A stretch of 64,000 nt of DNA from a virus (taxonomy: Duplodnaviria; Caudoviricetes), in IMG/VR virus record IMGVR_UViG_3300033475_000011, positions 16,752-80,751 of that record. One strand, written 5' to 3'. The notes below the pieces were generated by a model, which saw only the letters and a list, made by a program, of their open reading frames with translations, was not told where the DNA came from and did no database searches. Of the stretch, positions 1 to 61,299 are shown one piece after another. The translations under genes were made by a program, and so were the position numbers. How positions within the stretch are numbered: position 1 is the stretch's first letter; each line of letters begins with the position of its first letter.

Positions 1-4
1 GACT

Positions 5-60
5 GATCGACTCCACGCACGATCTGTGACCACTGTAGTCCATGTGGGTGGGAGTCGATC
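5..60 (+). promoter_or_regulatory. Leader hairpin occluding the SD of the 61..927 gene
   Basis: GATCGACTCC (5-14) is the reverse complement of GGAGTCGATC (51-60), which contains the GGAG SD directly before GTG 61. Confidence 0.5.
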
Positions 61-927
61 GTGCAACACGAATGCGGAGTGTCACATTGCGGTATCGGGA
101 CCCAAGACCGGATCTGCGGGGTCCATACCCGGGAGTTGACGGGGGCGTTGCGGGCGCTGTGTGTGGAGCACAGTGGGGGATCCTCCCTGCTTGAGGAGCT
201 GGATATGGTGATCACTAGGCAGGCGAAGATCGTGGGCGCACCCATCGGCATCGTGGTGCGTAGCGGTGAAACTCGCCTCCCCTACCACGACCCAGCTAGC
301 GATCTCAGGATCGAGGTATACCGGGAGTTAGCGACCTGGGGTGTCGTGATGCTCCGGGAAAACCCGCACCTTGACCGTGTGCAACGCACCCCCATAGCGA
401 CCGGAGAGTGGCTGGCCTACAAACCAGGCTTGCTCGCCAACCTGCCCGGGGTGGAGTCGCTGCACGCCAACCTCGTCCGCCTGCGGCGGGACATCGAACG
501 CATGATTGACCGGCCGGCGACCACCGTCATGCTCGGCATCTGCTCCACGGTCCTGGAGGACGGCACAGGGTGCCCGAAGCACCTGTACGCGGTGTTGGAT
601 GACGAGAACCGTCCCCCGGCGTGGATCCGTTGCCCGCAGTGTGGAGCGGAGCATGAGGTGTTGGCGAGGCAACAGGCGTTGGTGGCTCAGGGACGTTTGA
701 CGGTCGGCACCGCCGCCGAAGTCTCCCGTGTACTGGGGAAGATCGGGATCATCATCCCTGCTTCCACGATCCGGTCCTGGGCGCAGAAACGTATCTCCCG
801 GGGCAAGGTGATCGAGCCCCGCATCAAGGCCGTGGAGGCGTCCGCTGAGTGGCATCCGCTGTACCGGATCGATGATGTGCTGGGGGCGTATTTGAAGGGC
901 TTGGAGAAGAAGGGGAAGGCAGCATGA
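61..927 (+). CDS. Zn-finger plus C-terminal winged-HTH protein, candidate late-gene activator
   Basis: CxxxxC/CPQC motifs; C-terminal TAAEVSRVL..STIRSWA..PLYRIDDV MerR-like wHTH; typical right-arm position ahead of packaging genes. Confidence 0.55.
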   Translation: MQHECGVSHCGIGTQDRICGVHTRELTGALRALCVEHSGGSSLLEELDMVITRQAKIVGAPIGIVVRSGETRLPYHDPASDLRIEVYRELATWGVVMLRENPHLDRVQRTPIATGEWLAYKPGLLANLPGVESLHANLVRLRRDIERMIDRPATTVMLGICSTVLEDGTGCPKHLYAVLDDENRPPAWIRCPQCGAEHEVLARQQALVAQGRLTVGTAAEVSRVLGKIGIIIPASTIRSWAQKRISRGKVIEPRIKAVEASAEWHPLYRIDDVLGAYLKGLEKKGKAA

Positions 928-1133
928 CTGAAGACGAGAAGCGCGAGGTCCTCGGGAAATACCTCGAGCGCCTGGCTGCCGAACTACGGCATGCACGCTG
1001 GGAGAAGATCGAATTCGAGGTCGATGAGGACAACTGTCTGCGTGAAGATCCGTTCACGCTCGACCTCGTTGACACGGGTGACAGGGACATCAAGATCAGC
1101 ATGAAGCTTCGGGGGGCGACCGACCGTGGATGA
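924..1133 (+). CDS. hypothetical protein
   Basis: ATGA-coupled to the upstream gene, 69 aa. Confidence 0.6.
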   Translation: MTEDEKREVLGKYLERLAAELRHARWEKIEFEVDEDNCLREDPFTLDLVDTGDRDIKISMKLRGATDRG

Positions 1134-1437
1134 CCTGATCGCGTTCCTGCGGGCACGAGTGGCCGAGGACAAGCAGGCGGCCGAAGAACTGTGGCTCCCA
1201 GCTGAACTCATGGACACCGTTGCCGACACCAAGCGCGTGCTGGCGGAGGTGGACTCCAAGAGGAGAATCGTCGAGCACGTTGTGGATTCGATAGCAGGTT
1301 GGGACGCGGACGCCGATGAAGGACCGACTGACCGGGCTGACGCGAACTGCGCGATCACCGACCTGCGACACGTGCTGAAGCTGCTCGCTCTGCCCGACGC
1401 TGGGCATCCGGATTACCAGGAAGGCTGGCGTCCGTGA
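1126..1437 (+). CDS. DUF6221-like protein
   Basis: MDDLIAFLRARVAED..VLAEVDSKRRIV..LKLLALP..HPDYQEGWRP pattern. Confidence 0.7.
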   Translation: MDDLIAFLRARVAEDKQAAEELWLPAELMDTVADTKRVLAEVDSKRRIVEHVVDSIAGWDADADEGPTDRADANCAITDLRHVLKLLALPDAGHPDYQEGWRP

Positions 1438-1784
1438 GCGGGGACCTGGTGTCGCGGCTTCTCGCCGCGATCGACGAGACCGCGGAAAACGCCGTACTGA
1501 TCCACTCCTGCGACTGCCTCACAACACGGTGGTCCGAAGGACTCGATAGCTGCGACTGTCCTCAGCCAGATCGTATCCGCCGCCGCTGCGCAGCAGACCG
1601 GAAGCTCATCGAAGCGGCCAGCAAGTGGGTCGTAGACATCGACGAGCACGGCAACTACAAGCGCCAGCCAGGCGACACCACCGGCGCGCAGGAAGTGACC
1701 CTGATCGAGAGCCTGGCCGGGACCTGGCACGGCGTGCTGGAGACACTGGCCGCTGGCTACGGCATTACCGAGGAGGACAAGTGA
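1434..1784 (+). CDS. DUF6221-like protein (second, divergent copy)
   Basis: DLVSRLLAAIDE..RRCAADRKLIE..VLETLAAGYG; GTGA coupling. Confidence 0.55.
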   Translation: MSGDLVSRLLAAIDETAENAVLIHSCDCLTTRWSEGLDSCDCPQPDRIRRRCAADRKLIEAASKWVVDIDEHGNYKRQPGDTTGAQEVTLIESLAGTWHGVLETLAAGYGITEEDK

Positions 1785-1990
1785 GCGACAGCATCGAAAC
1801 CAAGTGCGAGGTCATCGAAGTGACCCGCGAGGACCTGGAGGCGCAGCGTGCCGAGATCCTGGCCCGCTACGGCATCGAACCGGGCACCAGGATCGCCGAG
1901 GAATGCGGCTGCTGTCCCGCGGTGGACATCGGGTGGGGATCCTTCCAGGGTCTGCGGGACATCGCGTTCCTGCTCGGGGAGGACAAGTGA
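1781..1990 (+). CDS. hypothetical protein
   Basis: GGAGG SD, GTG 1781 overlapping the upstream stop. Confidence 0.6.
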   Translation: MSDSIETKCEVIEVTREDLEAQRAEILARYGIEPGTRIAEECGCCPAVDIGWGSFQGLRDIAFLLGEDK

Positions 1991-1996
1991 GCACCT

Positions 1997-2182
1997 GTGG
2001 ATGAGGTCACCGAGTACGCGATCCGCATGTCCGGTGGCGGCATGCATGTCCGCAAAGCGCACCCGCAGATCGAACGCATCTTCCCGCTCGCCGAGTGGAT
2101 GAAGCACACCCAGCGCGATGGCGGCCGGGTGTATCGGCGACGGGTTATCGTGGTTGAGGACTGGACCGAGGTGACCGAGTGA
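1997..2182 (+). CDS. hypothetical protein
   Basis: ORF track; coupled to the next gene. Confidence 0.55.
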   Translation: MDEVTEYAIRMSGGGMHVRKAHPQIERIFPLAEWMKHTQRDGGRVYRRRVIVVEDWTEVTE

Positions 2183-2379
2183 GCATCATCGGGAAGATCG
2201 TGGACTGGTTCGACTGTTGGCGTGGCGACCACGACTGGTACACCGAGACCCGCAGCGACGGGGTTCTTCTCCGTACCGAACTGTGCAGCGCCTGCGGGAG
2301 CCCGCACCCCCAAGCGTTCCAAGCATTGGACTACTCCCGTCCTGCTGACCCGGTTGGGGAAGACCCCGAATGCGAGTAG
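2179..2379 (+). CDS. hypothetical Cys/His-rich protein
   Basis: GTGA overlap; DCWRGDH..CSACG. Confidence 0.55.
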   Translation: MSIIGKIVDWFDCWRGDHDWYTETRSDGVLLRTELCSACGSPHPQAFQALDYSRPADPVGEDPECE

Positions 2380-2830
2380 CCGCCGAAGAGCCTGATGGCC
2401 CCGGTCGGCGGCTACCAATACCGGTAGGCGGCGGTGAGTGCGGCGTTCCGCTCGTCCTGGTCGTCGAGATCCGGCGTGTCTAGCTGGACAAACACTGCGC
2501 ATCACGCGAAACTGGTAAAGTCCTAGATCGCGTGAACCAGTGATCTAGGAGCCAGTCTTCCGGAGTTGGTGTGCACGCCACCCGGCAGCGACCTCGGTAC
2601 TTCTCCTGGTAGCCCGAGGCAACGTGATGGCAGGAGACGAGGCCGCGCGCTACGGCCAGGAACGAAGCCCCCAGGGCATGGTGAAGAGGCCCGCCGGGTG
2701 GATATCCTCCGGCGGGCCTCGCCCCTGACTTCCCGGGCAAGTGACGCTGCAGTTGGAGCACGGGAATCAAGCCCCCTTGGACGGCCATCCGAGGGGGCTT
2801 CTTACTTCCAGCCGTAACCCGTCACCGGCT
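2376..2830 (+). ncRNA. Candidate structured non-coding RNA, unclassified
   Basis: Dense hairpins at 2376-2415, 2511-2556, 2592-2619, 2686-2720 and 2769-2800; long-range stem 2585-2590/2745-2750; loop pseudoknot 2602-2608/2631-2637; no credible ORF. Confidence 0.45.
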
Positions 2831-2851
2831 GGCCATATCAGGGAGGTCCCC

Positions 2852-3148
2852 ATGGACGAGCTGGCCGAACTGCTCGGGATCGACTACAGCGACCCCGTGC
2901 AGCGTCTCGCCCGCGACCTCACCGAGAACGACTACGCCCTGATCGGCAGCCTGGTCGAGATCCGCAAAGCGAAGGGTCTCACCCGCGCGGACGTAGCCGA
3001 ACGCATGGGGACAACGGTCGCCGCAGTTGGCGACCTGGAGACCGTCAGCTCTGACCCGCGCATGTCCATCCTCCGCCGCTACGCCATGGCCGTCGGCGCT
3101 CTCATGACCACAACGGTCGCGCCAGTCCACATCGACGCGGCGGCGTAA
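2852..3148 (+). CDS. XRE/HigA-like HTH protein
   Basis: GGAGG SD; LVEIRKAKGLTRADVAERMGTTVAAVGDLE..DPRMSILRRYAMAVG (HTH_3). Confidence 0.8.
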   Translation: MDELAELLGIDYSDPVQRLARDLTENDYALIGSLVEIRKAKGLTRADVAERMGTTVAAVGDLETVSSDPRMSILRRYAMAVGALMTTTVAPVHIDAAA

Positions 3149-3289
3149 CCACCGAGACGGCACACCCCCGACGTTCCCCCACGGGATTCCCGGGACTGGT
3201 GTGTCTGCGGCGGCAGCCCGGCATGGTGCCCAGGGAGAGCCTGGGACAGGGCCCCTTGTCCCCTCATGAAACACCGCGGCTGCCGCCCC

Positions 3290-3487
3290 CTACTTGCCTG
3301 GATCAACCCCCAGGCCCTCCAGCAGCGACACCACCCGCTGTTCCTCGGCACGTAGCGTCTCCAGCCGGCCAGGATCAGGAAACACCACCTCGGCCCGCTC
3401 ATACGCGGCGATGGCTGCCCGCAGCTCCCGCAGCCGGCGCATGGTGGCCTCAACCTGTTGCTGCCTCGTGTACGACACGACCCGCAA
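3290..3487 (-). CDS. hypothetical coiled-coil protein
   Basis: 65-aa ORF convergent with the XRE gene; TAGGTT -10-like hexamer just upstream suggests a leaderless start. Confidence 0.55.
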   Translation of the reverse strand: MRVVSYTRQQQVEATMRRLRELRAAIAAYERAEVVFPDPGRLETLRAEEQRVVSLLEGLGVDPGK

Positions 3488-3614
3488 CCTACCGTGACTA
3501 CTCTTATTTGACGGTCATTTGCACCCCCGCGGACCCAGGCCACGGAAACACCCTCTGACCTGCGCAAACCTATTTGCACACCTACTTCACTCGTCCTGCC
3601 ATAAGGGGGTTGAC

Positions 3615-4151
3615 ATGGCCTACAACCCACACAGCAAGGCGAACAACGCCGAACAGGCTGAGAAGCAGGTCACGGCCTACAACTACCGGCTCCGTGGCCA
3701 CAGCCTGCGTGAGATCGGGAAGCTGATGGGTGTCTCGCACGAGACGGCGCGGAAGCTCGTGTCGCTTGAGGCGGATGCGCGTGTGCTGCCGTTGGCGGAT
3801 GAGCTACGGAAGCAGCAGCTGGACCGGCTGAACGACATGCGTTTGAAGGCGATGGCTGTCCTGGAGCGGGAGCATGTGCATATCGCTGAGGGCCGGGTGG
3901 TTCGGGATAAGGATCCGGAGACGGGCGAGTTTTCAGATCCGATCGTGGATGATGGCCCGGTGTTGGCGGCGATTGACCGGTTGGTGAAGATCGAGGATCG
4001 CATGTCCAAGCTGCTAGGACTCGACGCGCCTGTTCAGTCGGAGATTGCGGCGGTGGTGGAGCACAAGCCCACCGAGGTGCTTTCGTTGATCGAGCAGACG
4101 CGGGCGAGGGTGGCTGAGGACGAAGCCCGACTTCGCGGTGAGGCGGGCTAG
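3615..4151 (+). CDS. terS: Terminase small subunit (HTH type)
   Basis: N-terminal HTH (GHSLREIGKLMGVSHETARK) and GPVLAAIDRLVKIEDRMSKLLGLDAP motif typical of actinophage TerS; start reassigned to ATG 3615 after the AAGGGGG SD. Confidence 0.75.
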   Translation: MAYNPHSKANNAEQAEKQVTAYNYRLRGHSLREIGKLMGVSHETARKLVSLEADARVLPLADELRKQQLDRLNDMRLKAMAVLEREHVHIAEGRVVRDKDPETGEFSDPIVDDGPVLAAIDRLVKIEDRMSKLLGLDAPVQSEIAAVVEHKPTEVLSLIEQTRARVAEDEARLRGEAG

Positions 4152-4173
4152 AACGCCACCGGGACGACTTCGC

Positions 4174-4365
4174 TCAGCTGCGCTCCCCGTGAAGACTCTT
4201 GGACACAAGCTTGGCGCATAGTGCCAGCGCCTCCAGCGGCGTGTTTCCGTGTTCCACGAACAGCCCGTATAACTCGCCGAGGCCGGAGGCCGGGATGCGC
4301 TGGCCATCCTTTGCGATGAAGGTGTAGGGGGCGGCTGCGCCCTGGCCGTCGGTGCTCTCGGTCAC
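4174..4365 (-). CDS. hypothetical protein (leftward operon)
   Basis: AAGGA SD, GTGA coupling. Confidence 0.55.
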   Translation of the reverse strand: MTESTDGQGAAAPYTFIAKDGQRIPASGLGELYGLFVEHGNTPLEALALCAKLVSKSLHGERS

Positions 4366-4538
4366 TGCTGTTCCTTCGCTGCAGGCAGGGGCGGTAGTTG
4401 GGTGACGGGTGCCAAGCCTCGCTGTTCGCAGGCTGCGCAGTGTGTGCGGGGTTCCCCGGTGACGGGGTATCGGGTGAGGTAGATCCGGCCGTCACAGTCG
4501 CGGGTGGCGCACTCGGGCCACCGGTTGGTGTCGGTCAC
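4362..4538 (-). CDS. hypothetical Zn-finger mini-protein
   Basis: GTG 4538 adjoining the upstream stop; CATRDC..HCAAC. Confidence 0.55.
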   Translation of the reverse strand: MTDTNRWPECATRDCDGRIYLTRYPVTGEPRTHCAACEQRGLAPVTQLPPLPAAKEQQ

Positions 4539-4750
4539 TACAGCCCCCTGGTCAGTTCGTCGATGCGGGCCACTAGGCGTTCGTTGGCGGCGGCCATGAC
4601 CTGGGTCCACACGACACCGGGCGACTCATCCTGCAGTCCGTTGTTCAGCGCTTCAATGACGGTTTGGATCGCCGCTGCGGCGTGCTGGGTGGCGGTCGCC
4701 ATGCCGGCGAAGGCGGTGCTGAGGTGTGCCGCATAGTTGGTTTCGCTCAC
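4538..4750 (-). CDS. hypothetical helical protein
   Basis: AAGGAG SD, GTG 4750. Confidence 0.6.
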   Translation of the reverse strand: MSETNYAAHLSTAFAGMATATQHAAAAIQTVIEALNNGLQDESPGVVWTQVMAAANERLVARIDELTRGL

Positions 4751-4923
4751 TGTTGCTCCTTCTTGGTGTTGTAGAGGTCCACTCCGAGTAGCCCGGCCAG
4801 GACACGACGCCACAACGGCAGCGTGACCACGTCCGGGTGCTGGCATGGACAGTACTTGGCGTACACGCCGCAGCGACGACACAGCTGCGTGTACCACGGA
4901 TGGCCACTGCCCTGCGGGTTCAC
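4747..4923 (-). CDS. hypothetical Cys-rich mini-protein
   Basis: GTG 4923 coupled; CRRC..CPCQH. Confidence 0.55.
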   Translation of the reverse strand: MNPQGSGHPWYTQLCRRCGVYAKYCPCQHPDVVTLPLWRRVLAGLLGVDLYNTKKEQQ

Positions 4924-5072
4924 GGCTTGTCCTTGCGGGGCTCGTTGGGGCCGACCCTGGTCCCCTTGTCGCCGTTGCCTTTGGTGCGGGCGATCCCGCA
5001 CGGCATGTTGCCGGCGATCTTGCCGTACTTGCTGTCGACTACTCCGTAGGGGCGTTCCTTCTTGGCGGTCAT
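4920..5072 (-). CDS. hypothetical basic mini-protein
   Basis: AGGAAGGA SD, ATG 5072. Confidence 0.55.
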   Translation of the reverse strand: MTAKKERPYGVVDSKYGKIAGNMPCGIARTKGNGDKGTRVGPNEPRKDKP

Positions 5073-5119
5073 CTTGCTGGTTCCTTCCTTCCATGGGTTG
5101 GGGGCTTGTAGCCCGACAC

Positions 5120-5401
5120 TCAACGAGACTCAGGTAGGTCGTCGGCGATCTGAAACGCCCGCAACGCCGCATCGGTGAGCCCGTCAGCACGGCGACGATC
5201 CGGTGTCGACCATCCACGTGTGCGGCGGATCTCCTCCGCCTCTGCATCCAACACCTCGCCGAACTTGTTCAGCATGGCCCTGACGGCGTTGCGGACATGG
5301 TTGTCGTCCTGGTCTTCCCAGAGGACACGACCGGGGAAGTTGACCGCGTACAGGTGCTCCCGTGCTGCTGCCATCATCTGGTCGGCGATGCCCTCGGTCA
5401 T
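5120..5401 (-). CDS. hypothetical protein
   Basis: AGGAAGGA SD; bracketed by a 15-bp direct repeat. Confidence 0.65.
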   Translation of the reverse strand: MTEGIADQMMAAAREHLYAVNFPGRVLWEDQDDNHVRNAVRAMLNKFGEVLDAEAEEIRRTRGWSTPDRRRADGLTDAALRAFQIADDLPESR

Positions 5402-5452
5402 GCGTGTGGTTCCTTCCTGGTCTGGGTAGAAGTCAACGAGACTCAGGCTGGC

Positions 5453-5686
5453 TCACTCGTACAGGGCCTGGGCGATCTCCGGTGCCCCGTCGTGCACCTT
5501 GCGGATCTCGATGCGGATCTCGTCCGAGCCGGCGACGATTACCCCGTCGAACGAGGCGACGATGGCGATGACCTCTTTGAGGGTCTTGTTCTCGTGGATC
5601 TCGATCTCTCCGTCGATGGCTACGACAACGTCGTAGGACGGGTTGATTGCGTTGGCGATGTCGATGTTCGGGGCGTCCTCGGTCAT
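5453..5686 (-). CDS. hypothetical acidic protein
   Basis: AAGGAG SD, 77 aa. Confidence 0.65.
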   Translation of the reverse strand: MTEDAPNIDIANAINPSYDVVVAIDGEIEIHENKTLKEVIAIVASFDGVIVAGSDEIRIEIRKVHDGAPEIAQALYE

Positions 5687-5737
5687 CGTGTTCGTCTCCT
5701 TTGTGGTGGTCGGGCACTTGAGAGTGGGGTAGCGGCA

Positions 5738-6010
5738 CTACGCGGCAGGCGCGAGCTTCTCCGCCTTCTTGGCGCACTTCTTGCACAGAGGCAGCTTCTC
5801 GAACGGCTTCACCTTGTGTCGGTACTCGCGCTCGGACCGCTCCTCGTGGAACGACTGGTCGTACACCTGAACCGGATTAGAGTCGGTGCTGCACAGCGCG
5901 GAGCCGCTGAACCCGTAGCCGAGAAAGTGCGGCGTCATCCTCGGCGTGTAGTGCCGCTTGGTCTGGTACCAGTTCGACGCCTCGATCAAGTCGTCGCGGT
6001 CGATCATCAT
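5738..6010 (-). CDS. hypothetical Zn-binding protein
   Basis: ATGA-coupled to the RHH gene; H..ALC..LPLCKKC. Confidence 0.6.
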   Translation of the reverse strand: MMIDRDDLIEASNWYQTKRHYTPRMTPHFLGYGFSGSALCSTDSNPVQVYDQSFHEERSEREYRHKVKPFEKLPLCKKCAKKAEKLAPAA

Positions 6011-6216
6011 CGTCGTTCCTTTCCGGGATGCCAACCTTCGGGCATGCGCTTGGTGGCGTAGGCGAGGAGCCGTCGGGCTGCTTCGGACCAGGAGATGCCG
6101 TCCCTGTCGGCGATCCGCTGGATGGCGTCGTGGCCAGTCTTGGCTAGCCGCACGGCGTAGGACTTGCGTCCCTCGCCTTCGGCGGGTTCTGACGGGGTGG
6201 TCTTGCGGTCGTTCAC
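6007..6216 (-). CDS. Ribbon-helix-helix (CopG/Arc-like) regulator
   Basis: KSYAVRL beta-ribbon followed by HDAIQRIADRDGISWSEAARRLL helices. Confidence 0.7.
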   Translation of the reverse strand: MNDRKTTPSEPAEGEGRKSYAVRLAKTGHDAIQRIADRDGISWSEAARRLLAYATKRMPEGWHPGKERR

Positions 6217-6222
6217 CTACCG

Positions 6223-6256
6223 ATTCTAGCACATCCGTATTCAAAGTGAATACGGA
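6223..6256 (-). promoter_or_regulatory. Leftward promoter (-10 TAGAAT) with palindromic operator
   Basis: TAGAAT on the minus strand at 6223-6228; TCCGTATTCA-aag-TGAATACGGA at 6234-6256. Confidence 0.6.
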
Positions 6257-6332
6257 ATCTACCTGGGGAAATGCGGTTTCGGAGTGTCCTTCCGTCACCG
6301 GTGGGAGAGAACGATCTTCAGGAGGTGACCTG

Positions 6333-6617
6333 ATGCCCAGTGGTCTCCAAACCAGCCCCCAAGGCCGCAAGCTCTGGAAGTGGCTGACCGGACCTGAGGG
6401 TTTCGCCATGTACTCCGGCAGCCCGCATCCGTGGACCACGTTGCGGGACTTCCTCATCAAGCACGGTGTCTCGCCGGCGCAAGCCGATGGGGAAGCCACG
6501 AACGTAATGTTGGCGTCCAGCGCCGGCCGCGTCCTGTTCCGCCTGCATCACGGCAAACACCAGAGCGGCCCGAGCGCCGGCGAGCAGATCGCCGCCCGGG
6601 TCAAGGGCGGCAAGTGA
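6333..6617 (+). CDS. small actinophage protein (SPHPWT motif)
   Basis: GGAGGT SD, ATG 6333; motif resembles small head-region proteins of actinophages. Confidence 0.6.
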   Translation: MPSGLQTSPQGRKLWKWLTGPEGFAMYSGSPHPWTTLRDFLIKHGVSPAQADGEATNVMLASSAGRVLFRLHHGKHQSGPSAGEQIAARVKGGK

Positions 6618-6688
6618 AGCCCAGGCCGGTCAAACCCCGGCCCGTGAAGAGACCCACCAAACCGCGTCCGATCTCGGCACCGCATTGA
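6614..6688 (+). CDS. 24-aa Pro/Arg/Lys-rich peptide MKPRPVKPRPVKRPTKPRPISAPH
   Basis: GTGA overlap with the upstream stop; ends 4 nt before a terminator hairpin. Confidence 0.4.
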   Translation: MKPRPVKPRPVKRPTKPRPISAPH

Positions 6689-6692
6689 ACGT

Positions 6693-6725
6693 CCCAGCCC
6701 GATGGAAGTGGGCTGGGCTTTTTTG
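6693..6725 (+). terminator. Intrinsic terminator
   Basis: CCCAGCCC/GGGCTGGG stem followed by CTTTTTTG. Confidence 0.8.
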
Positions 6726-6785
6726 TGCCATCCGGCACGAATCCAACACACCCCGGGATGGGGTGCTCCCTGAAAGGTGGGCGGG

Positions 6786-7280
6786 ATGCCCAAGGAAAAC
6801 ATCAACGACTGGGTAACGGACGGCTTCCGCATGGAGGTCTCGTGGCGGGCAGAGGAACGTGTCTGCCCGTGCGGCATGGTCTGGGCCGCGGCGGTGGCGA
6901 CATGCCCTGAGTGCGGCCGGGCGGACGTGCCGGTCACCAGTGGACATGTGCAGGTCGCCAGCGTGAACCAACACAGCAAGTTCGCATTCAACAAGCTTGA
7001 CGGGGAACCGGAACCGTTCGACGGATGGCGGGTCACGCTCGACACCGATGGGATTGACCGCGCGATCGCGGCACTCGTCCGCGCCCAGAAGATGGCGTTC
7101 CCGGACGACACCGAAGACCTGCTCTACGAAGCGTGGGGCATCATCGCGAACGCAGGTTGGGACGCGCACCGCCCCAACCTGACGAACCTGGAGAAGTCGC
7201 CGGGTTGGCACGAAGCGGCGATCCGGTGGCGCGACCGCTATCACGCGCGGCTCAGCAGGAACTCGACCGGTGGCCGATGA
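6786..7280 (+). CDS. hypothetical protein with Zn ribbon
   Basis: CPCG..CPECG. Confidence 0.65.
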   Translation: MPKENINDWVTDGFRMEVSWRAEERVCPCGMVWAAAVATCPECGRADVPVTSGHVQVASVNQHSKFAFNKLDGEPEPFDGWRVTLDTDGIDRAIAALVRAQKMAFPDDTEDLLYEAWGIIANAGWDAHRPNLTNLEKSPGWHEAAIRWRDRYHARLSRNSTGGR

Positions 7281-7548
7281 GCGCACAGTGGAGCAGCGTC
7301 AAGCTGACGAAGCTCTCGCTGCTGCTATTGACCGTGTAACCCGCGTCTACAGCGCACTCGAACCGGCGACTGTGATCACCGGCTGGGTCGTTGTCGGTAC
7401 CGGGCTCGCCGCTGACGGCTCGGGTGATCTGTACCCGGACTTCGTGCTGCTTCCCGACAACGGGCGCGGGATGAGCCATGTGCAGATCATCGGGATGTTG
7501 CGGGCGGCCTCACTTCGCGTTGAGGCGAGCTACGTGTCCCCGGATTGA
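7270..7548 (+). CDS. hypothetical protein
   Basis: Coupled ORF, 92 aa. Confidence 0.6.
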   Translation: MADERTVEQRQADEALAAAIDRVTRVYSALEPATVITGWVVVGTGLAADGSGDLYPDFVLLPDNGRGMSHVQIIGMLRAASLRVEASYVSPD

Positions 7549-7583
7549 TACCCGTCTCCCGTGGCTTGATCACTGCGGGTTTG

Positions 7584-7627
7584 GAAGGCCCCGGCGCTCC
7601 TCCATGGCGTCGGGGCCTTCGCATTTC
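7584..7627 (+). terminator. GC-rich hairpin, putative terminator
   Basis: 14-bp stem 7584-7597/7607-7620 followed by GCATTTC. Confidence 0.6.
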
Positions 7628-7643
7628 ATGGAGAGGACACGAC

Positions 7644-8717
7644 ATGACGCTGTCGGTGAACCCTTCTGCACCCCTGCGTATCTGGATGTGGCTTGCCGAT
7701 AACAGTGGGTGTGGATGACTCGGCTACTACCGTTGCATCCTCCCCGGCCACGCCCTCGTTCAACGGGGGCATCTGGTGGCGATGGATGAGCGCATGCCCG
7801 AACGCATCCAAGCCGGCGAAGACGTAGACGTGATCGTCGCCCAACGCACGTGTATGCCCGGGCCGACCCAACTGTGGCAGCGCTTGGCCCGCGAGGGCAA
7901 CGCCAAGCTCGTGTTCGAGCTCGATGACGACCTGTGGAATGTGGAGCCCCACAACCGGGCCGCACATGAGCTGTATGTGCAGGGTGTGGTGCGGGACCAG
8001 TACGGGCGGGTGACGGATCGGGATGTGCCGATCGGCCAAAACCTGATCGACAACATCACGGTGGCGGACGTGGTCACGGTGTCCACCGAGCCCCTGGCGG
8101 ACCTCGTGTCCCGCTGGAACCCCAACGTCCACGTGCTACCGAACTGCATCCCCTCCTGGCTGCTCGACCAACCCGCGCCGGCACAGGAGTCGGAGCGGGT
8201 CACGATCGGCTGGGGTGGATCCCCGAGTCATACCCGGGACTTCGGCGAACTTGCCCGCCCGTTGAAGCGAGTCCTGCAGCGCTTCGGGGATGCCACCGAG
8301 TTCCACTGCGTCGGACCGGACTACACCAGCCGTGTCGCCTCACACCGCGGCCGCACACGGCACGCCAGGTGGTTCGACGGGGTGGAGGACTACCTCCGCG
8401 GCATCGACTTCCAGGTAGGGCTCGCCCCACTGCGGCCCTCGACGTTCAACGACAGCAAGAGCGATCTCAAGCTGCTGGAACTGGCCGCTCTCGGCATCCC
8501 CGCAATCGTCTCACCCACCGGACCGTACGCCCGCGCTATCGCAGCGGGGGTGCCGGCCCGCACCGCTGCCGACCACAAGGCTTGGGAACGGGAACTCGTC
8601 GACCTCATCCAGTCCCCCGCAGACCGGGAACAGCTCGGCAAAGAAGCCCGCGAGTGGGCCGCGACCCGCGTCATCGACCAGCACGCACGCCTTTGGGAGG
8701 CCGCATATGCCGCGTGA
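7644..8717 (+). CDS. GT-B (GT4-like) glycosyltransferase with an in-frame TGA at 7716-7718 (recoded or pseudogene)
   Basis: GGAGAGG SD plus ATG 7644 in frame with the ORF-track product; N-terminus WLADNSGCG*LGYYRCILP; C-terminus VTIGWGGSPSH..DFQVGLAPL..FNDSKSDLKLLELAALGIP. Confidence 0.75.
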
Positions 8718-9921: not shown

Positions 9922-10101
9922 GTGGAGACGGTTGGGATCAGGGACCTCGCGGACGAGCTCAATGTCTCGGTGCAGTTGATCAAGGATCTGCTCTACGCTG
10001 GGAAACTCAAAGCCGTCGGGAACCGGGTCACGAAAGACTCCGCGGACGAGTTGCGGTGGCATCTCGCTGCACACAAGGCACTGCTCCAGGGGGACACGTG
10101 A
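9922..10101 (+). CDS. small excisionase-like HTH protein (59 aa, below the ORF-track cutoff)
   Basis: VGIRDLADELNVSVQLIKDLLYAGKLKAVG. Confidence 0.55.
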   Translation: METVGIRDLADELNVSVQLIKDLLYAGKLKAVGNRVTKDSADELRWHLAAHKALLQGDT

Positions 10102-10232: not shown

Positions 10233-10775
10233 ATGCGCTACTTCTACGATACCGAGTTCCTCGAAGACGGCCGAACCATCGACCTGATCTCCATCGGCAT
10301 CGTCGCGGAGGATGGACGCGAGTACTACGCCGTGAACCGTGACGCCCCGTGGAAGCGGATTCGGAAGCACGAGTGGCTGTGCGGAAACGTTGTCCCGACG
10401 CTCCCAACTCTGCACGGCGACGCCCGCTTGCACTACGCCAGTCGCGGCCCGCTCGGCTTGTTGGACTGGCAGCACCCCGCCTTCAAGCGTCCGCAGGCCA
10501 TCGCGGACCAGGTTCGGGACTTCCTACTGGCTGATGGCGAGTCCGAGCGGGAGCTGTGGGCCTATTACAGCGCCTATGACCACGTGGCCCTGTGTCAACT
10601 GTGGGGCACGATGATGGACCTCCCGGACGGCGTGCCGATGTGGACCCACGACCTCATGCAGGCATGGGAGCAGGCTGGGCGGCCGGAGAAGCCCGCTCAG
10701 GTCGGCGAGCACAACGCGCTCGAAGATGCACGCTGGAACCAGAAGCTGTTCAAGGTGTGCGCCGACCATGGATGA
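10233..10775 (+). CDS. DEDDh 3'-5' exoribonuclease, Rv2179c/RNase AS (DUF5051) family
   Basis: MRYFYDTEF..LISIGIVAEDGREYYA..YSAYD..EHNALEDARW. Confidence 0.85.
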   Translation: MRYFYDTEFLEDGRTIDLISIGIVAEDGREYYAVNRDAPWKRIRKHEWLCGNVVPTLPTLHGDARLHYASRGPLGLLDWQHPAFKRPQAIADQVRDFLLADGESERELWAYYSAYDHVALCQLWGTMMDLPDGVPMWTHDLMQAWEQAGRPEKPAQVGEHNALEDARWNQKLFKVCADHG

Positions 10776-11150: not shown

Positions 11151-12668
11151 GTGTTCTACCCTCACCCGTTCAACCTGAACACCTACTTGGCCCAGTTCGA
11201 TCCCCGACTGCTCGCGGATCCTGAAGGCCGGCGCATCTCCACCAGACTCGACCCAGTCTTGTTCGGGCTGCTCTATGTCCCCCATCACCTTCGAGGCCCA
11301 GAGACAGGCGACTCCATCACCTTCTCCGAGTTCCACATCGAACTGGCTGAGTACGCCCGCGAGCTGGTGAAGCCAATCGGGCGTGTTCCGGCGGAACGGA
11401 GAGACGCCTTCATCGCTCCGCGTGGCGTCGGAAAGAGCACGTGGCTGTTTCTGATCGTGCCGTTGTGGCTCGCCGCGCACGGTCACCGGCAATTCATCGC
11501 GGCGTTTGCGAACGCGGCAACGCAGGCGCAAGACCACCTGATGACGTTCAAGCGCGAGCTGGACAACAACTCGCTGCTGCGCCAGGACTTCCCGGATTTG
11601 TGCACGGCCGCTCGACGACCGAAGGGCGCCGCAGTCGCGGACTCCCAATCCATGTACGTGTCCGCAAGCAACTTCGTGTTCGCAGCCCGCGGCATCGACT
11701 CCGCCAACCTCGGCATGAAGATCGGGGAGCGCAGGCCATCCCACATCATCCTCGACGACATCGAAGGCACCGAAGGCAACTACACGCCGACGATGAAGGA
11801 ACACCGGCTCGCGACGCTGCTGTCCGGCATCCTGCCGTTGAACGTGTTCGCCTCCGTGACCATGGCCGGCACCGTCGCCATCCCGGGCGCGATCATCGAC
11901 GACATCGCCGCGAAACAACGCGACGAGGAACACCCAGCTTGGGTGGAGGACGAGAACTTCACGCCCCGCTACTACCCGGCGATCGTCACCAACCCGGACG
12001 GGACGGAGCGGTCCCTGTGGCCGCAGAAGTGGCCGCTGGAGTGGATGCAGTCACAGCGCCACTCGCGGCACTTCCAAAGCCAGTACATGAACAACCCGAT
12101 GGCTGCGGATTCGGCGTTCTGGCGGGGCGAGGACTTCGTCTACCGCGATGACATGCCCCTCACTGGCCAGCTGTTGTCGATCGACCCAGCAGTCACATCG
12201 AAAGAAAAGTCCGACTACACGGCGCTTGCGGTGATCGGGTTTTCCCGTCCCGCGATGGCGTGTGTAGTTCGGGACGCTTGGCAAGTTCGGCTTCCACCGG
12301 GTGAACCGTTGCGGCGCCGGGTGTTGGAGATCCTGGACGAGTACCCCGAGATTTTGGGGATCGTGGTCGAGGTCAACCAGGGCGGCGATCTGTGGAAGAA
12401 CACGGTGTTGCATGACATGCCGTGCCCAGTGCAGACAGTGACCCAGTCTAGGCCGAAAGAAGAACGTGCCGGCTCGCTGTTGGCGAAGTACCAGCGCGGC
12501 CGGGTGTTCCACGCGAAGCGGATCCCCGCCCTTGAGGGTCAGATGATCCGGTTCCCGCTGGGCACCAACGATGACCTGATCGACGCCGTGGGAACTGGTG
12601 TCGACGTGTACTTGAAGACCGACAAGAAGCCTCGCCAGATTCGGCCTCAGACGGCCAGCTACATCTAG
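11151..12668 (+). CDS. terL: Terminase large subunit
   Basis: Walker A APRGVGKST, Walker B IILDDIE, nuclease SIDPA..DYTA and NDDLIDA. Confidence 0.95.
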   Translation: MFYPHPFNLNTYLAQFDPRLLADPEGRRISTRLDPVLFGLLYVPHHLRGPETGDSITFSEFHIELAEYARELVKPIGRVPAERRDAFIAPRGVGKSTWLFLIVPLWLAAHGHRQFIAAFANAATQAQDHLMTFKRELDNNSLLRQDFPDLCTAARRPKGAAVADSQSMYVSASNFVFAARGIDSANLGMKIGERRPSHIILDDIEGTEGNYTPTMKEHRLATLLSGILPLNVFASVTMAGTVAIPGAIIDDIAAKQRDEEHPAWVEDENFTPRYYPAIVTNPDGTERSLWPQKWPLEWMQSQRHSRHFQSQYMNNPMAADSAFWRGEDFVYRDDMPLTGQLLSIDPAVTSKEKSDYTALAVIGFSRPAMACVVRDAWQVRLPPGEPLRRRVLEILDEYPEILGIVVEVNQGGDLWKNTVLHDMPCPVQTVTQSRPKEERAGSLLAKYQRGRVFHAKRIPALEGQMIRFPLGTNDDLIDAVGTGVDVYLKTDKKPRQIRPQTASYI

Positions 12669-40009: not shown

Positions 40010-40112
40010 CTGGTGGTTCATGAACCAGTGTGTGGTTCATGAACCACCAGCGCAATGCTCCATTCGAGTGACACGCGAAGATGTGTCATGAACCGCTAAG
40101 CTGTGGTTCATG
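40010..40112. promoter_or_regulatory. Nested palindromic operators and leaderless promoter
   Basis: TGGTTCATGAACCA at 40014-40027 and 40033-40046; half-sites at 40086-40094 and 40104-40112; -10 TAAGCT at 40097-40102. Confidence 0.75.
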
Positions 40113-41967: not shown

Positions 41968-43209
41968 CTACCCACCTTCAGCAGCCCCGGACTCCCCCAC
42001 CATGCCCTCCAACGCGGACGCCGCCACGTCGTTCGCCGCGAACTTCTTCCTGTAGTGACGCTCCACCACCGCCACCGTGTTGCCCAACTGGTCGGCGATC
42101 ATGGTGGTCGGCAACCCGGCCTCCTTCAACACGTCGGTCACCGTCTTGCGCCACACGTGTGACGTGATGCCCGGGTAGCCGATCTCCACGAACGCCTCCT
42201 GCAACCGGTTGATCACAGTCGACGGATCCAGCCACCGGCCCTTGTTTGACGGGAAGATCGCCCCACCCCCCGATGCCAGCTTCAGGCGCTGCCACGTCGG
42301 AACAGACCACTCCGGCACCCGCAGATCCAGTTCGGGCTCGCCACTCTTCCGGAGCGGTTCCCGCACGATCCCCTCACCGGTGACCCGAACCAGGTGGTAG
42401 CGGACCAGCACCCGCCGGTTCACGGGATCGATGTCGTCGCCGTCGAGGGCGAGGAGTTCCCCGATGCGCACACCGGTGGAGAGGGCACAGTCATGCACGT
42501 CCGGGAGTTTCTTCCACACCCTGGCGCGGCCCCCGAGACTGCGTCCGCGCTTGTCGTACTGTTTGCGCTCGGCCAGGGCGATGAGCTTGGCCTTCACGTC
42601 GGCACGCTCGGTCGCGGTGAGTGCCCGCACCTCCTTCTTCTCCCCCGCAACGAGCCGGCCGACCGACTTCACCGGGTTGATCCGCATCGCCTGGTTACGG
42701 ATCGCATAAGCGCAGATACCGGACAGCACGGCCCGAACCGAGTGGGCTGAGGAGTAGCTGCGTTCATCCCGCGCGCGCTGGATTAGCCTGTCGAAGCTGC
42801 TGGGCATGTGTTCGGCCTCGCGGGCCAGGAGTTCCCCGATGGCGGGTTTGACCCAGTTCCGCACATAGCCCCCGTACATGCGGACGCTACTTTTGGCCAT
42901 GCCGCCCTGGTTGGCGACACGGGTAACCTCAGCAAGCCACAGGTCCGCGATCGTGGACATCCGGGTGTCGCCGTTGATTGCCCCGGAGGTAGCTTCGTTC
43001 GCGAGGATCGTCATGCGATTCTTCAGCGCGTTGACGGCTTTGGTTTTGGTGGGGCCGGTGCGGCGAACCTCTTTGCGGCTGCCGTCGGCGATCCGCATGT
43101 AGGCGCGGGCCTCCCAGCGGGTGTAGGTGGTGCCGTCCCGTTTGTGTCGGGTTTCGGAGCGGGTGGTGATCTCCCCGTAGCTTCCGATCGGGGTTGGTGG
43201 CCTCGCCAT
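41968..43209 (-). CDS. int: Tyrosine integrase with N-terminal arm-binding domain
   Basis: MARPPTPIGSYG..WEARAY; GVRIGE, SHVWRK, LGN, ERHY; adjacent to attP. Confidence 0.92.
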   Translation of the reverse strand: MARPPTPIGSYGEITTRSETRHKRDGTTYTRWEARAYMRIADGSRKEVRRTGPTKTKAVNALKNRMTILANEATSGAINGDTRMSTIADLWLAEVTRVANQGGMAKSSVRMYGGYVRNWVKPAIGELLAREAEHMPSSFDRLIQRARDERSYSSAHSVRAVLSGICAYAIRNQAMRINPVKSVGRLVAGEKKEVRALTATERADVKAKLIALAERKQYDKRGRSLGGRARVWKKLPDVHDCALSTGVRIGELLALDGDDIDPVNRRVLVRYHLVRVTGEGIVREPLRKSGEPELDLRVPEWSVPTWQRLKLASGGGAIFPSNKGRWLDPSTVINRLQEAFVEIGYPGITSHVWRKTVTDVLKEAGLPTTMIADQLGNTVAVVERHYRKKFAANDVAASALEGMVGESGAAEGG

Positions 43210-51525: not shown

Positions 51526-51623
51526 ACTAGCTGTGGTGACGCTACCTACAGTGCGTCAGAGTGACGTGGCGACGCCACTAGCGGGCGATACTAGTTGCAC
51601 TAGCCCATGCTAGGGAGTAGCCT
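51526..51623. promoter_or_regulatory. Divergent promoter region with five CTAG-core motifs
   Basis: ACTAG at 51526, 51577, 51590 and 51599, GCTAG at 51609; TTGCAC-N17-TAGCCT ahead of leaderless ATG 51630. Confidence 0.7.
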
Positions 51624-58073: not shown

Positions 58074-58346
58074 ATGGCCACCAATGAGCGCGTCGACATT
58101 ACCGGCCCAACAGCAGACGCCTGGGCCGCCGCAGCACGGTGGGCAAGCAGTGATCCTGCCGCTGCGGAAAACATGGCAGTCCTCGCCGAACTCGGCGAAC
58201 TCCTCGACAGCGGGCGCACAGACCCCGAGCTCGAAGAAGAGTGCCGCGAACTACTCGCCCGCTCCATCCGGCTCTGCGAACTCTCCGACAAGCACTGGGA
58301 GCAGCAGTGGGCGCTCGCGTGGGCACGGAGGGGGAACTGTGGCTAA
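58074..58346 (+). CDS. hypothetical protein
   Basis: Overlaps the rep start. Confidence 0.5.
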   Translation: MATNERVDITGPTADAWAAAARWASSDPAAAENMAVLAELGELLDSGRTDPELEEECRELLARSIRLCELSDKHWEQQWALAWARRGNCG

Positions 58347-59292
58347 GAAGCTCAACGCCCGTACATGGGCGCGGCAACTCCCCAAACCGGTCCGCAATGG
58401 CCGCTTCTACCGTCTGGGTGGGCATGTGGCGCAGGTGCTGGCCGGCCACGCCCACCTGGATGGTGCGGGCATCACTGTCGCTATGAGGACTCTCGCGGAG
58501 GAGACGTGGTGCACCCTCAATGAGATCGAGGAAGCCCTGGCGTGGCTGGAGGAAGAGAAGTGGTTCACCCGCGTTGACAGCGTGAATGGCGTCGAGTGGG
58601 TGTGCAACTTCGAGATCGTCCGCAGCGGGGGTCCGTCTGAGATTGATGAGCGGTTGGAGCGTAAGCGTGCGCAGGGACGGGCGCGTTGGCATCGGTTGCA
58701 GGAGCGTCGCCGTGGCGATCAGGGCGTTAGTGAGGTGCGTGAGTCTGCGTTAGTAGGGTGCGTTAGTGAGCGTGAGCAACTAACGCACCCTACTAACGAA
58801 CTAACGCAGGCGACTAACGCAACTAACGCACCCAACAAACGCTTAGCGTTAGTAGGGGGCGTTAGAACCCCAGGTCACAGCCCCGAAGTACCTAAGAAGG
58901 AAAAGAAAGAAGTACCAGAAGGAAAAGAACTCCGATCGGCTGACGCCGATCGGCAGGAGTCCTTCTTCGAAGTCGCATCCCCAGAGAAGCCCGAGAAGCA
59001 GCCGAAGGCGCCAGCCCCGGCTCACGTCCTCGCCGATCGCTACTACCAAGCAACAGACCGGAACGGCAAGTTCATCGCCAAACGTCAGACAGTCGCGAAA
59101 GCGCTGGAGAAGTACCCCTACGAAGACGTGGAACGAGCGGTCGACATCCTCTGCCATAACCTCAACTACAGCTTCTCCGTCGAGAACATCTACAAGGCGA
59201 TGACTGGCGCCGTTGGGCCACGCCGAAAACAACATCGCCCGTTCCAGTCCGCCGACCACGACTACACCGACCATGGAGGCTTCGGTGCTTGA
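58339..59292 (+). CDS. Replication initiator (lambda O-like, wHTH)
   Basis: GGAGG SD, GTG 58339; MRTLAEETWCTLNEIEEALAWLEEEKW; internal iterons; upstream of the loader and DnaB. Confidence 0.75.
   Translation: MAKKLNARTWARQLPKPVRNGRFYRLGGHVAQVLAGHAHLDGAGITVAMRTLAEETWCTLNEIEEALAWLEEEKWFTRVDSVNGVEWVCNFEIVRSGGPSEIDERLERKRAQGRARWHRLQERRRGDQGVSEVRESALVGCVSEREQLTHPTNELTQATNATNAPNKRLALVGGVRTPGHSPEVPKKEKKEVPEGKELRSADADRQESFFEVASPEKPEKQPKAPAPAHVLADRYYQATDRNGKFIAKRQTVAKALEKYPYEDVERAVDILCHNLNYSFSVENIYKAMTGAVGPRRKQHRPFQSADHDYTDHGGFGA
58724..58865. repeat. Iteron cluster, probable replication origin
   Basis: About 10 GCGTTAG/CTAACGC units; perfect 20-bp inverted repeat 58748-58767/58779-58798. Confidence 0.75.
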
Positions 59293-61253: not shown

Positions 61254-61299
61254 CTAGTACACAGAACTAGTTGTACTAGCCTTCACTGGTCGCTATGCT
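61254..61299 (+). promoter_or_regulatory. Promoter sharing the XRE-locus motif
   Basis: ACTAGTTGTACTAGCC at 61266-61281; TTGTAC-N17-TATGCT. Confidence 0.7.

Follow-up and report, generated by a model that had tools for sequence, protein, structure and literature searches.

Phage tRNA islands hold extra small RNAs, whose function has been open since the species 1 and 2 RNAs of T4 (rnaC and rnaD), small stable RNAs encoded inside the tRNA cluster of that phage. In actinobacteria, intrinsic terminator hairpins that lack a U-tail are common. We interrogated a gene-free, hairpin-bearing gap in a phage that looks like an actinophage (genome G+C content ~65%). The DNA analyzed, here called the window, is a stretch of 64,000 nt that covers bases 16752-80751 of a linear, 80,751-nt IMG/VR record with a CheckV completeness of 88%. 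On balance, our analysis favors the view that this gap is the leading portion of a non-coding RNA island, oriented rightward, that spans ~2470-3290 of the window. It also provides two modeled, testable RNA genes: E1, which is widespread and covaries, and D1, which is pseudoknotted and restricted to the lineage.

In a gene map built from codon usage, a rightward operon of small genes terminates at 2379 and is followed by the 472-nt gap (2380-2851), an XRE-family gene (2852-3148), a 141-nt gap, and mixed small genes. An earlier note on this DNA had placed a structured RNA at 2376-2830, before the packaging genes of an otherwise tightly packed genome. However, the next gene is the XRE regulator, the rightward gene run leading to the packaging genes begins at ~6333, and the large terminase gene (11151-12668; at most 45-48% identity to Streptomyces phages and IMG/VR contigs) lies 8.3 kb downstream. 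Nor is the packing tight throughout, as five gaps, the studied one among them, reach 397 nt or more. The portal, capsid, tail, and integrase genes were assigned by ORF size and position alone, the integrase gene (41968-43209) without a domain search. The features of the locus are as follows.

2376-2415, strand unassigned: H1, an 11-bp hairpin that overlaps the stop codon of a 66-aa gene (2179-2379)
2421-2474, minus strand: gene relic, 18 codons like an internal part of a 126-aa protein of contig L122, inverted and without a start codon
2470-2505, plus strand: B0, a block common to contig L126 (27/35 identical), where it lies directly 3' of the stop codon of the upstream gene
2502-2564, plus strand: H2, a 24-bp irregular hairpin around the palindrome TCCTAGATC/GATCTAGGA
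2553-2645, plus strand: D1, a 5' block (GUCUUCC..GGUGUGCACGCCACC..GCGACC) followed by an H-type pseudoknot
2686-2720, strand unassigned: H4, a 12-bp perfect, G+C-rich, terminator-type hairpin
2744-2763, plus strand: B2, a ACGCTGCAGTTGGAG block that L126 also has, in the same order relative to the other shared blocks (90% over 20 nt, E 0.017; weak when taken alone)
2769-2800, plus strand: H5, a 13-bp hairpin with one U-G pair, trailed by CUUCUUACUU
2852-3148, plus strand: XRE-family HTH gene of 98 aa with a strong ribosome-binding site (AGGGAGG)
3207-3289, plus strand: E1, with a closing stem P1, the invariant strings CAUGGUGCC and UCAUGAAACA (P2), a P3 hairpin with a GAGAN loop, and a variable P4 hairpin

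The gap is non-coding. Its six frames score at most 0.18 per codon between 2440 and 2800, as compared with 0.5-0.6 for the XRE gene, and its two ORFs lack convincing homologs, in agreement with the earlier statement that no plausible ORF is present. Specifically, the 102-aa ORF P0001 matches nothing in Pfam or PHROGs and has a single marginal, repeat-like match among 1.8 billion proteins, and the 83-aa ORF P0002 has zero tblastn matches in the phage collection. At the DNA level, similarity to the gap is absent from INPHARED phages and PLSDB plasmids. Three coding explanations were tried and rejected. A leader peptide (2627-2728) with attenuation through the alternative pairings I8 and I10 fails on a pair probability of 0 and a lack of conservation. 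The tblastn match that suggested an inverted XRE pseudogene (12/34 residues, arginine-rich) is an artefact of composition. Of the ORFs that lie upstream in relatives, and that might have left a decayed partner or toxin gene, no trace is found in the gap. Searches for known RNA classes were also negative, as the earlier reading by eye had suggested for tRNA, tmRNA, riboswitches, and the like: Rfam 15 (4227 models, its self-cleaving ribozyme families among them; gathering thresholds) gives zero matches over the whole window, and ARAGORN finds no tRNA or tmRNA in it. When the region 2100-3400 is searched against Rfam at E values up to 10, only hairpin-level chance matches of at most 21.5 bits appear, none of them on D1 or E1.

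Using the terminase gene, we found no close kin (at most 48% identity in IMG/VR and 44% in GTDB genomes), and the syntenic relatives were reached via the downstream 178-aa HTH gene (3615-4151). One close relative, L126, is a prophage-like 51-kb contig from a sequenced strain, Amycolatopsis sp. NPDC006131. Its colinearity with the window extends over 1-8000 and takes in the DUF6221 genes and a glycosyltransferase cassette; matches to the window fall at 18-890, 3185-3287, and 3639-4127 and in the cassette. At the same place it carries a gene-free slot of 476 nt without the XRE gene, and the blocks that stay colinear across the two loci are 2470-2505, 2582-2600, 2744-2763, an H5-like hairpin, and 3185-3287. 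Among these, B0 likely marks the start of the island. In other relatives, the slot holds tRNA genes: tRNA-Met (2469-2544) and tRNA-Ser (2785-2867) in the 1.26-kb slot of L128, tRNA-Met (4575-4649) in L122, and tRNA-Met (1429-1501) in L129. In L162, D1 and E1 flank a tRNA with a good T-arm (3199-3266) that scores 25.8 bits, below the threshold of 29, and is either degenerate or atypical. The slot of the phage studied here contains no detectable tRNA gene. Because the syntenic slots of its relatives hold tRNA genes, we interpret the slot as a non-coding RNA island; the synteny with tRNA-bearing islands is itself an observation. We also observed that the 398-aa minus-strand gene called in L122 (4435-5631) resembles a false call over a non-coding island, which contains the tRNA-Met together with a ~140-nt hairpin (5203-5342) that draws weak matches to microRNA precursors.

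Of the structured RNAs at this locus, E1 has the best support; it lies downstream of the XRE gene, outside 2376-2830. When the window, L126, and L128 are compared, its long closing stem varies yet stays complementary, its GAGAN-loop hairpin covaries, and CCAUGGUGCC and UUCAUGAAACA are invariant. A search pattern of two invariant strings retrieved 44 IMG/VR contigs, ~40 of which are genuine. Model R1 scores the copy in the window at 66.3 bits (E 6e-19), which places it in the family, and the copy of L128, a contig outside the training set, at 49.5 bits. P1 and P3 covary strongly. In an alignment of 33 distinct sequences (A5), 88.5% of the cells pair, as compared with 65% in shuffles and 34-42% with slid partners; 167 cells are altered on both sides against 58 expected, a value matched by 0 of 500 shuffles, and double changes are found in 10/10 pairs of P1 and 4/6 pairs of P3. 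The invariant motifs were fixed by the pattern used to collect the sequences, so that P2 is uninformative either way. Model R1 detects one E1 in this genome and one in each of four others with a CheckV completeness of 95-100%, and it finds none in phage P1. It resides within same-strand tRNA arrays in four contigs (L131, L132, L153, and L161). Its neighbors include no conserved protein and vary among an integrase, a capsid protein, a sliding clamp, a replication initiator, and an AAA ATPase; therefore, E1 behaves as a free-standing RNA gene. We assign it to the plus strand because of a conserved G-U pair in P2, a G-U pair in P4 of L126, and the orientation it shares with the tRNAs. The E1 family is named here as a widespread family without a match in Rfam 15, and a literature search by word and by motif string returned nothing relevant.

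D1 is conserved in L162, where its copy lies ~340-420 nt upstream of E1: window 2553-2634 matches L162 3049-3128 with 80.7% identity over 83 nt (E 2e-14). L128 shares the 5' half of D1, and model R2 picks up L128 2232-2331 at 30.6 bits. The earlier note had described a hairpin (2592-2619) whose loop pairs with a downstream segment (2602-2608/2631-2637), and L162 retains both helices through changes in both strands. Helix S1 (2592-2597/2614-2619) reads CCUCGG/CCGAGG in the window and CCCGA/UCGGG in L162, with 3 pairs altered on both sides (CG CG TA CG GC GC against CG CG CG GC AT). Helix S2 (2602-2608/2631-2637) reads UCUCCUG/CAGGAGA in the window and UCCCCUG/CAGGGGU in L162, with 1 pair altered on both sides and 1 lost (TA CG TA CG CG TA GC against TT CG CG CG CG TA GC). 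The loops are nearly equal in length (window, 4/5/11; L162, 3/5/11), and the 11-nt linker is conserved as GCAACGUGAU(G/U)G. The traits that define the module, namely the 5' block and the retention of S1 and S2 by compensatory change, were judged on two to three sequences.

On thermodynamic grounds, the same segment is unremarkable. Region 2583-2660 folds no better than shuffles (z 0.02), and S2 has a pairing probability of 0.61 within a nested fold that competes with the 2592-2619 hairpin (0.37); this nested fold of the studied phage is absent in L162. The comparison of sequences, with a single full homolog (L162) and a weak match in L128, supports the pseudoknot, and D1 is probably a constrained, pseudoknotted RNA. 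A comparison that proceeds via neighboring genes can thus rescue a pseudoknot that folding energies would pass over. Two pattern scans of IMG/VR for D1 returned L162 only, and model R2 detects nothing in ~35 other E1-carrying loci. D1 and E1 occur together in three phages only, with ~30 other E1 loci lacking D1, and the two may be unrelated neighbors. As for the earlier suggestion of an undescribed non-coding RNA (ribozyme, packaging-related, or regulatory), what holds is that D1 is conserved and lacks a match in Rfam; no link to packaging and no match to a ribozyme family of Rfam was found.

The XRE gene that separates the two modules looks, from its distribution, like an insertion into the island of a gene relocated from elsewhere. 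It is absent from the L126 island, and the seven homologs of its protein (52-74% identity) are encoded in operons, usually just before a RuvC-like gene, none of them with a comparable gap. In L098, the XRE homolog comes straight after the counterpart of window gene 9922-10101; in L087 and L099, the gene right behind it is RuvC-like and resembles window gene 10233-10775. Near these two genes, where the XRE gene would be expected, the window has a 131-nt gap. An apparent 475-nt gap in L097, an Amycolatopsis prophage, was rejected as a parallel: it consists of two uncalled ORFs and is unstructured (z -1.1). These plausible ORFs of 58 and 84 aa (L097 2519-2695 and 2750-3004) are missing from the stored gene calls. 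Separately, L087 carries a TROVE (Ro60-like) gene (1910-3496) close to its XRE-RuvC pair, which raises the question of a Y-RNA-like partner among the RNAs of these islands.

We also examined how the region folds. Every stem listed in the earlier note is found in the sequence, and the 476 nt taken together fold with z -5.7 on the plus strand and z -4.8 on the minus strand relative to dinucleotide shuffles. The region is not unique in its structure, because it ranks 4 of 339 among 476-nt windows of the same genome (z -2.3). As a side observation, the part between 38.9 and 40.1 kb is among the most structured of the genome, and an intergenic 18-bp perfect palindrome, CTGGTGGTTCATGAACCA, occurs at 40010-40050. 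When individual elements were scored against 200 dinucleotide shuffles each, the fold signal proved to consist of four separate local hairpins, H1, H2, H4, and H5, with shuffle-like stretches between them. In the ensemble of the whole region these hairpins reach pair probabilities of 0.9-1.0, and 4 of the 28 perfect hairpins of the genome with a stem of at least 9 bp fall in the gap.

The leading alternative, which we regard as unlikely, is that the region is a plain transcription boundary without any functional RNA. The stems in 2376-2830 would then act separately as terminators or insulators where the early operon ends, combined with the promoter and operator of the XRE gene, and H2 would be an operator palindrome. 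The hairpins fit this description in several respects. H1 (stems 2376-2386/2405-2415) overlaps the upstream stop codon and folds at -27.1 kcal/mol (z -3.3) on the plus strand and -33.0 kcal/mol (z -5.1) on the minus strand; it is probably the terminator of the upstream operon and possibly a bidirectional one. The upstream 66-aa protein has a single homolog (L109), and the similarity to L109 ends at ~2394-2403, i.e., at H1. In L126, the one relative with which the H1 slot was compared, H1 falls within ~90 nt that are missing. H4 folds at -34.9 kcal/mol (z -4.1), and an identical stem occurs in intergenic DNA of the unrelated contigs L119 and L120, following a stop codon in L120. H5 folds at -27.5 kcal/mol (z -3.4), and its identical 13-bp stem is found in the unrelated L121, after a stop codon and with a GAAA loop followed by seven T; the H5-like hairpin of L126 is a look-alike only. 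H4 and H5 look like ordinary terminator stems, and H5 is probably an intrinsic terminator or attenuator 40 nt before the ribosome-binding site of the XRE gene. The hairpins fold well on both strands, with a mixed preference: H2 is better on the plus strand, H1 is better on the minus strand, and H4 and H5 are about equal.

H2 also suits an operator. It folds at -29.9 kcal/mol with z -6.2 on the plus strand and z -3.3 on the minus strand, and it contains a 9-12-9 palindrome beside an extended -10-like site, TGnTAAAGT (2513-2521). It sits on one of the three CTAG clusters of the genome, where CTAG is 4.4-fold under-represented overall. The TAAAGT site aligns with -35-like hexamers in relatives, and no convincing promoter was found in the region. 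The motif TGGACAAAC was considered as a repeated promoter and set aside, since its count is at chance level and its other copies are probably coding. The other two CTAG clusters coincide with an intergenic sequence, ACTAGTTG(C/T)ACTAGCC, that occurs twice (51590-51605 and 61266-61281) with TAGCCT or TATGCT 17 nt after the inner TTGYAC; this repeat resembles an early promoter of the sigma-70 type that may include an operator.

Counterparts of H2 and H4 are absent from L126, L128, and L162, a lack of conservation that likewise agrees with a boundary. When IMG/VR and JGI metagenomes were scanned for exact patterns of H2 and of the H4 loop, only chance matches in unrelated DNA came up. Against this reading stand three observations: a consensus scan of 1900-3700 finds no canonical terminator; the XRE homologs of relatives lie inside operons without such a leader; and D1 is ~80% conserved in L162 with two compensated helices and is co-oriented with the tRNAs and E1. 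The conspicuous hairpins are lineage-specific. The reading that suits them best has H1, H4, and H5 acting as terminators or attenuators around the inserted regulator gene and H2 being either the 5' stem of an RNA or an operator. The most eye-catching hairpins of a gene-free region can thus be its least conserved part.

It is also improbable that the gap is evolutionary debris, in which decayed tRNA or protein genes have no present function and the hairpins are leftovers or arose by chance. The gene relic speaks for this reading: 2421-2474 matches L122 by blastn (83% over 54 nt, E 2e-9) and by tblastn (13/18 residues identical), and its stop-to-stop frame is merely 29 codons long. Because it is an inverted 18-codon relic of a gene that lies near the island in L122, we interpret the left edge as a rearrangement scar. 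The tRNAs present in the slots of relatives and missing here would fit decay as well, as would some short stretches in the H4 flank and the H5 loop that recur exactly in the degenerate L162 tRNA, in scrambled order and without significance (E 0.2-0.8). However, the four hairpins each beat their shuffles, the gap holds its 4 of the 28 perfect hairpins, and D1 is structurally constrained. A phage of such size seldom retains 470 nt of pure junk.

We consider it very improbable that the region acts as DNA, as a cos or pac site, a replication origin, an attP site, or a palindromic recombination hot spot. In favor of such a site, the palindromes fold equally well on both strands, and the locus bears the marks of a rearrangement junction, with the gene relic, an XRE gene that is inserted here and absent in L126, and the start, at window 2268, of a second assembly (L086). 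Nevertheless, it contains neither iterons nor an A+T-rich tract, the integrase gene at 41968-43209 is far off, the record runs through the site, and H2 and H5 have asymmetric bulges and G-U pairs, as suits the folding of a single strand. A better origin candidate is a 20-bp perfect inverted repeat with ACTAACG repeats at 58748-58798, inside gene 58339-59292. The least credible alternative is the one large, multi-domain RNA of ~430 nt with a pseudoknot (e.g., a ribozyme or packaging RNA) that the earlier note proposed: the whole-region z of -5.7, the missing ORF, and the missing Rfam match speak for it, but the helix said to close its main domain (2585-2590/2745-2750) has an ensemble pair probability of ~0 and no counterpart in L126 or L162, the significance stems from four local hairpins, conservation in relatives is limited to ~90 nt, L126 keeps the slot without H2 and H4, 2421-2474 is an inverted gene relic, and the terminase gene is distant, so that the conserved, pseudoknotted ~90-nt piece D1 survives from the proposal and its size, unity, and link to packaging do not.

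We therefore return to the non-coding RNA island as the preferred, if only moderately favored, reading of the gap. The island would occupy the interval between the early small-gene operon and the 178-aa HTH gene. In relatives, tRNA genes lie between the conserved 5' module D1 and the conserved 3' module E1, both of which show compensatory changes. In the phage studied here, the island would comprise D1, the terminator-type hairpins H4 and H5, the acquired XRE gene, and E1; ahead of it would lie the putative operon terminator H1, the inverted gene relic, and the lineage-specific H2. Such an island might be transcribed rightward and cut up like a tRNA precursor. D1 might then serve as a 5' leader or as a stability or processing element, H4 and H5 might attenuate read-through into the XRE gene, and E1 might be a small stable RNA that acts in trans and either takes part in the biology of tRNAs or translation or serves as a decoy to host defence. 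More tentatively, and with considerable doubt, we propose that E1, and here also D1, represent undescribed classes of structured RNA that travel with tRNA genes. In this proposal, D1 and E1 would frame an exchangeable cargo slot, filled with tRNAs in relatives and with the XRE gene and attenuator hairpins here, and the target of E1, acting in trans, would be tRNA or translation metabolism or an RNA-targeting defence of the host.

Among known systems, the Y RNAs of bacteria and phages (YrlA) that function with Ro/Rsr resemble this locus in being structured RNAs with tRNA-like pieces near tRNA genes, and P4 of the L126 E1 bears a T-loop-like UUCGAAA. They differ in that there is no Rfam match to YrlA or any Y RNA, no TROVE gene among the window ORFs searched, and, as far as can be judged, no Ro-binding helix in E1. 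Like intrinsic terminators, H1, H4, and H5 are G+C-rich perfect stems at or after gene ends; unlike them, they lack a canonical U-tract, with H1 and H4 lacking any U-tract, and it is unusual for three or four of them to stand in a row ahead of one small gene. E1 differs from the T4 species 1 and 2 RNAs in its setting: most of the contigs that carry it have 53-71% G+C, and it frequently lies apart from tRNA arrays. The likeness to the T4 RNAs, drawn by description only, is that E1 is a short gene for a structured RNA with no protein partner; several phages carry it within tRNA arrays of the same strand, and in this lineage tRNA genes occupy the same island.
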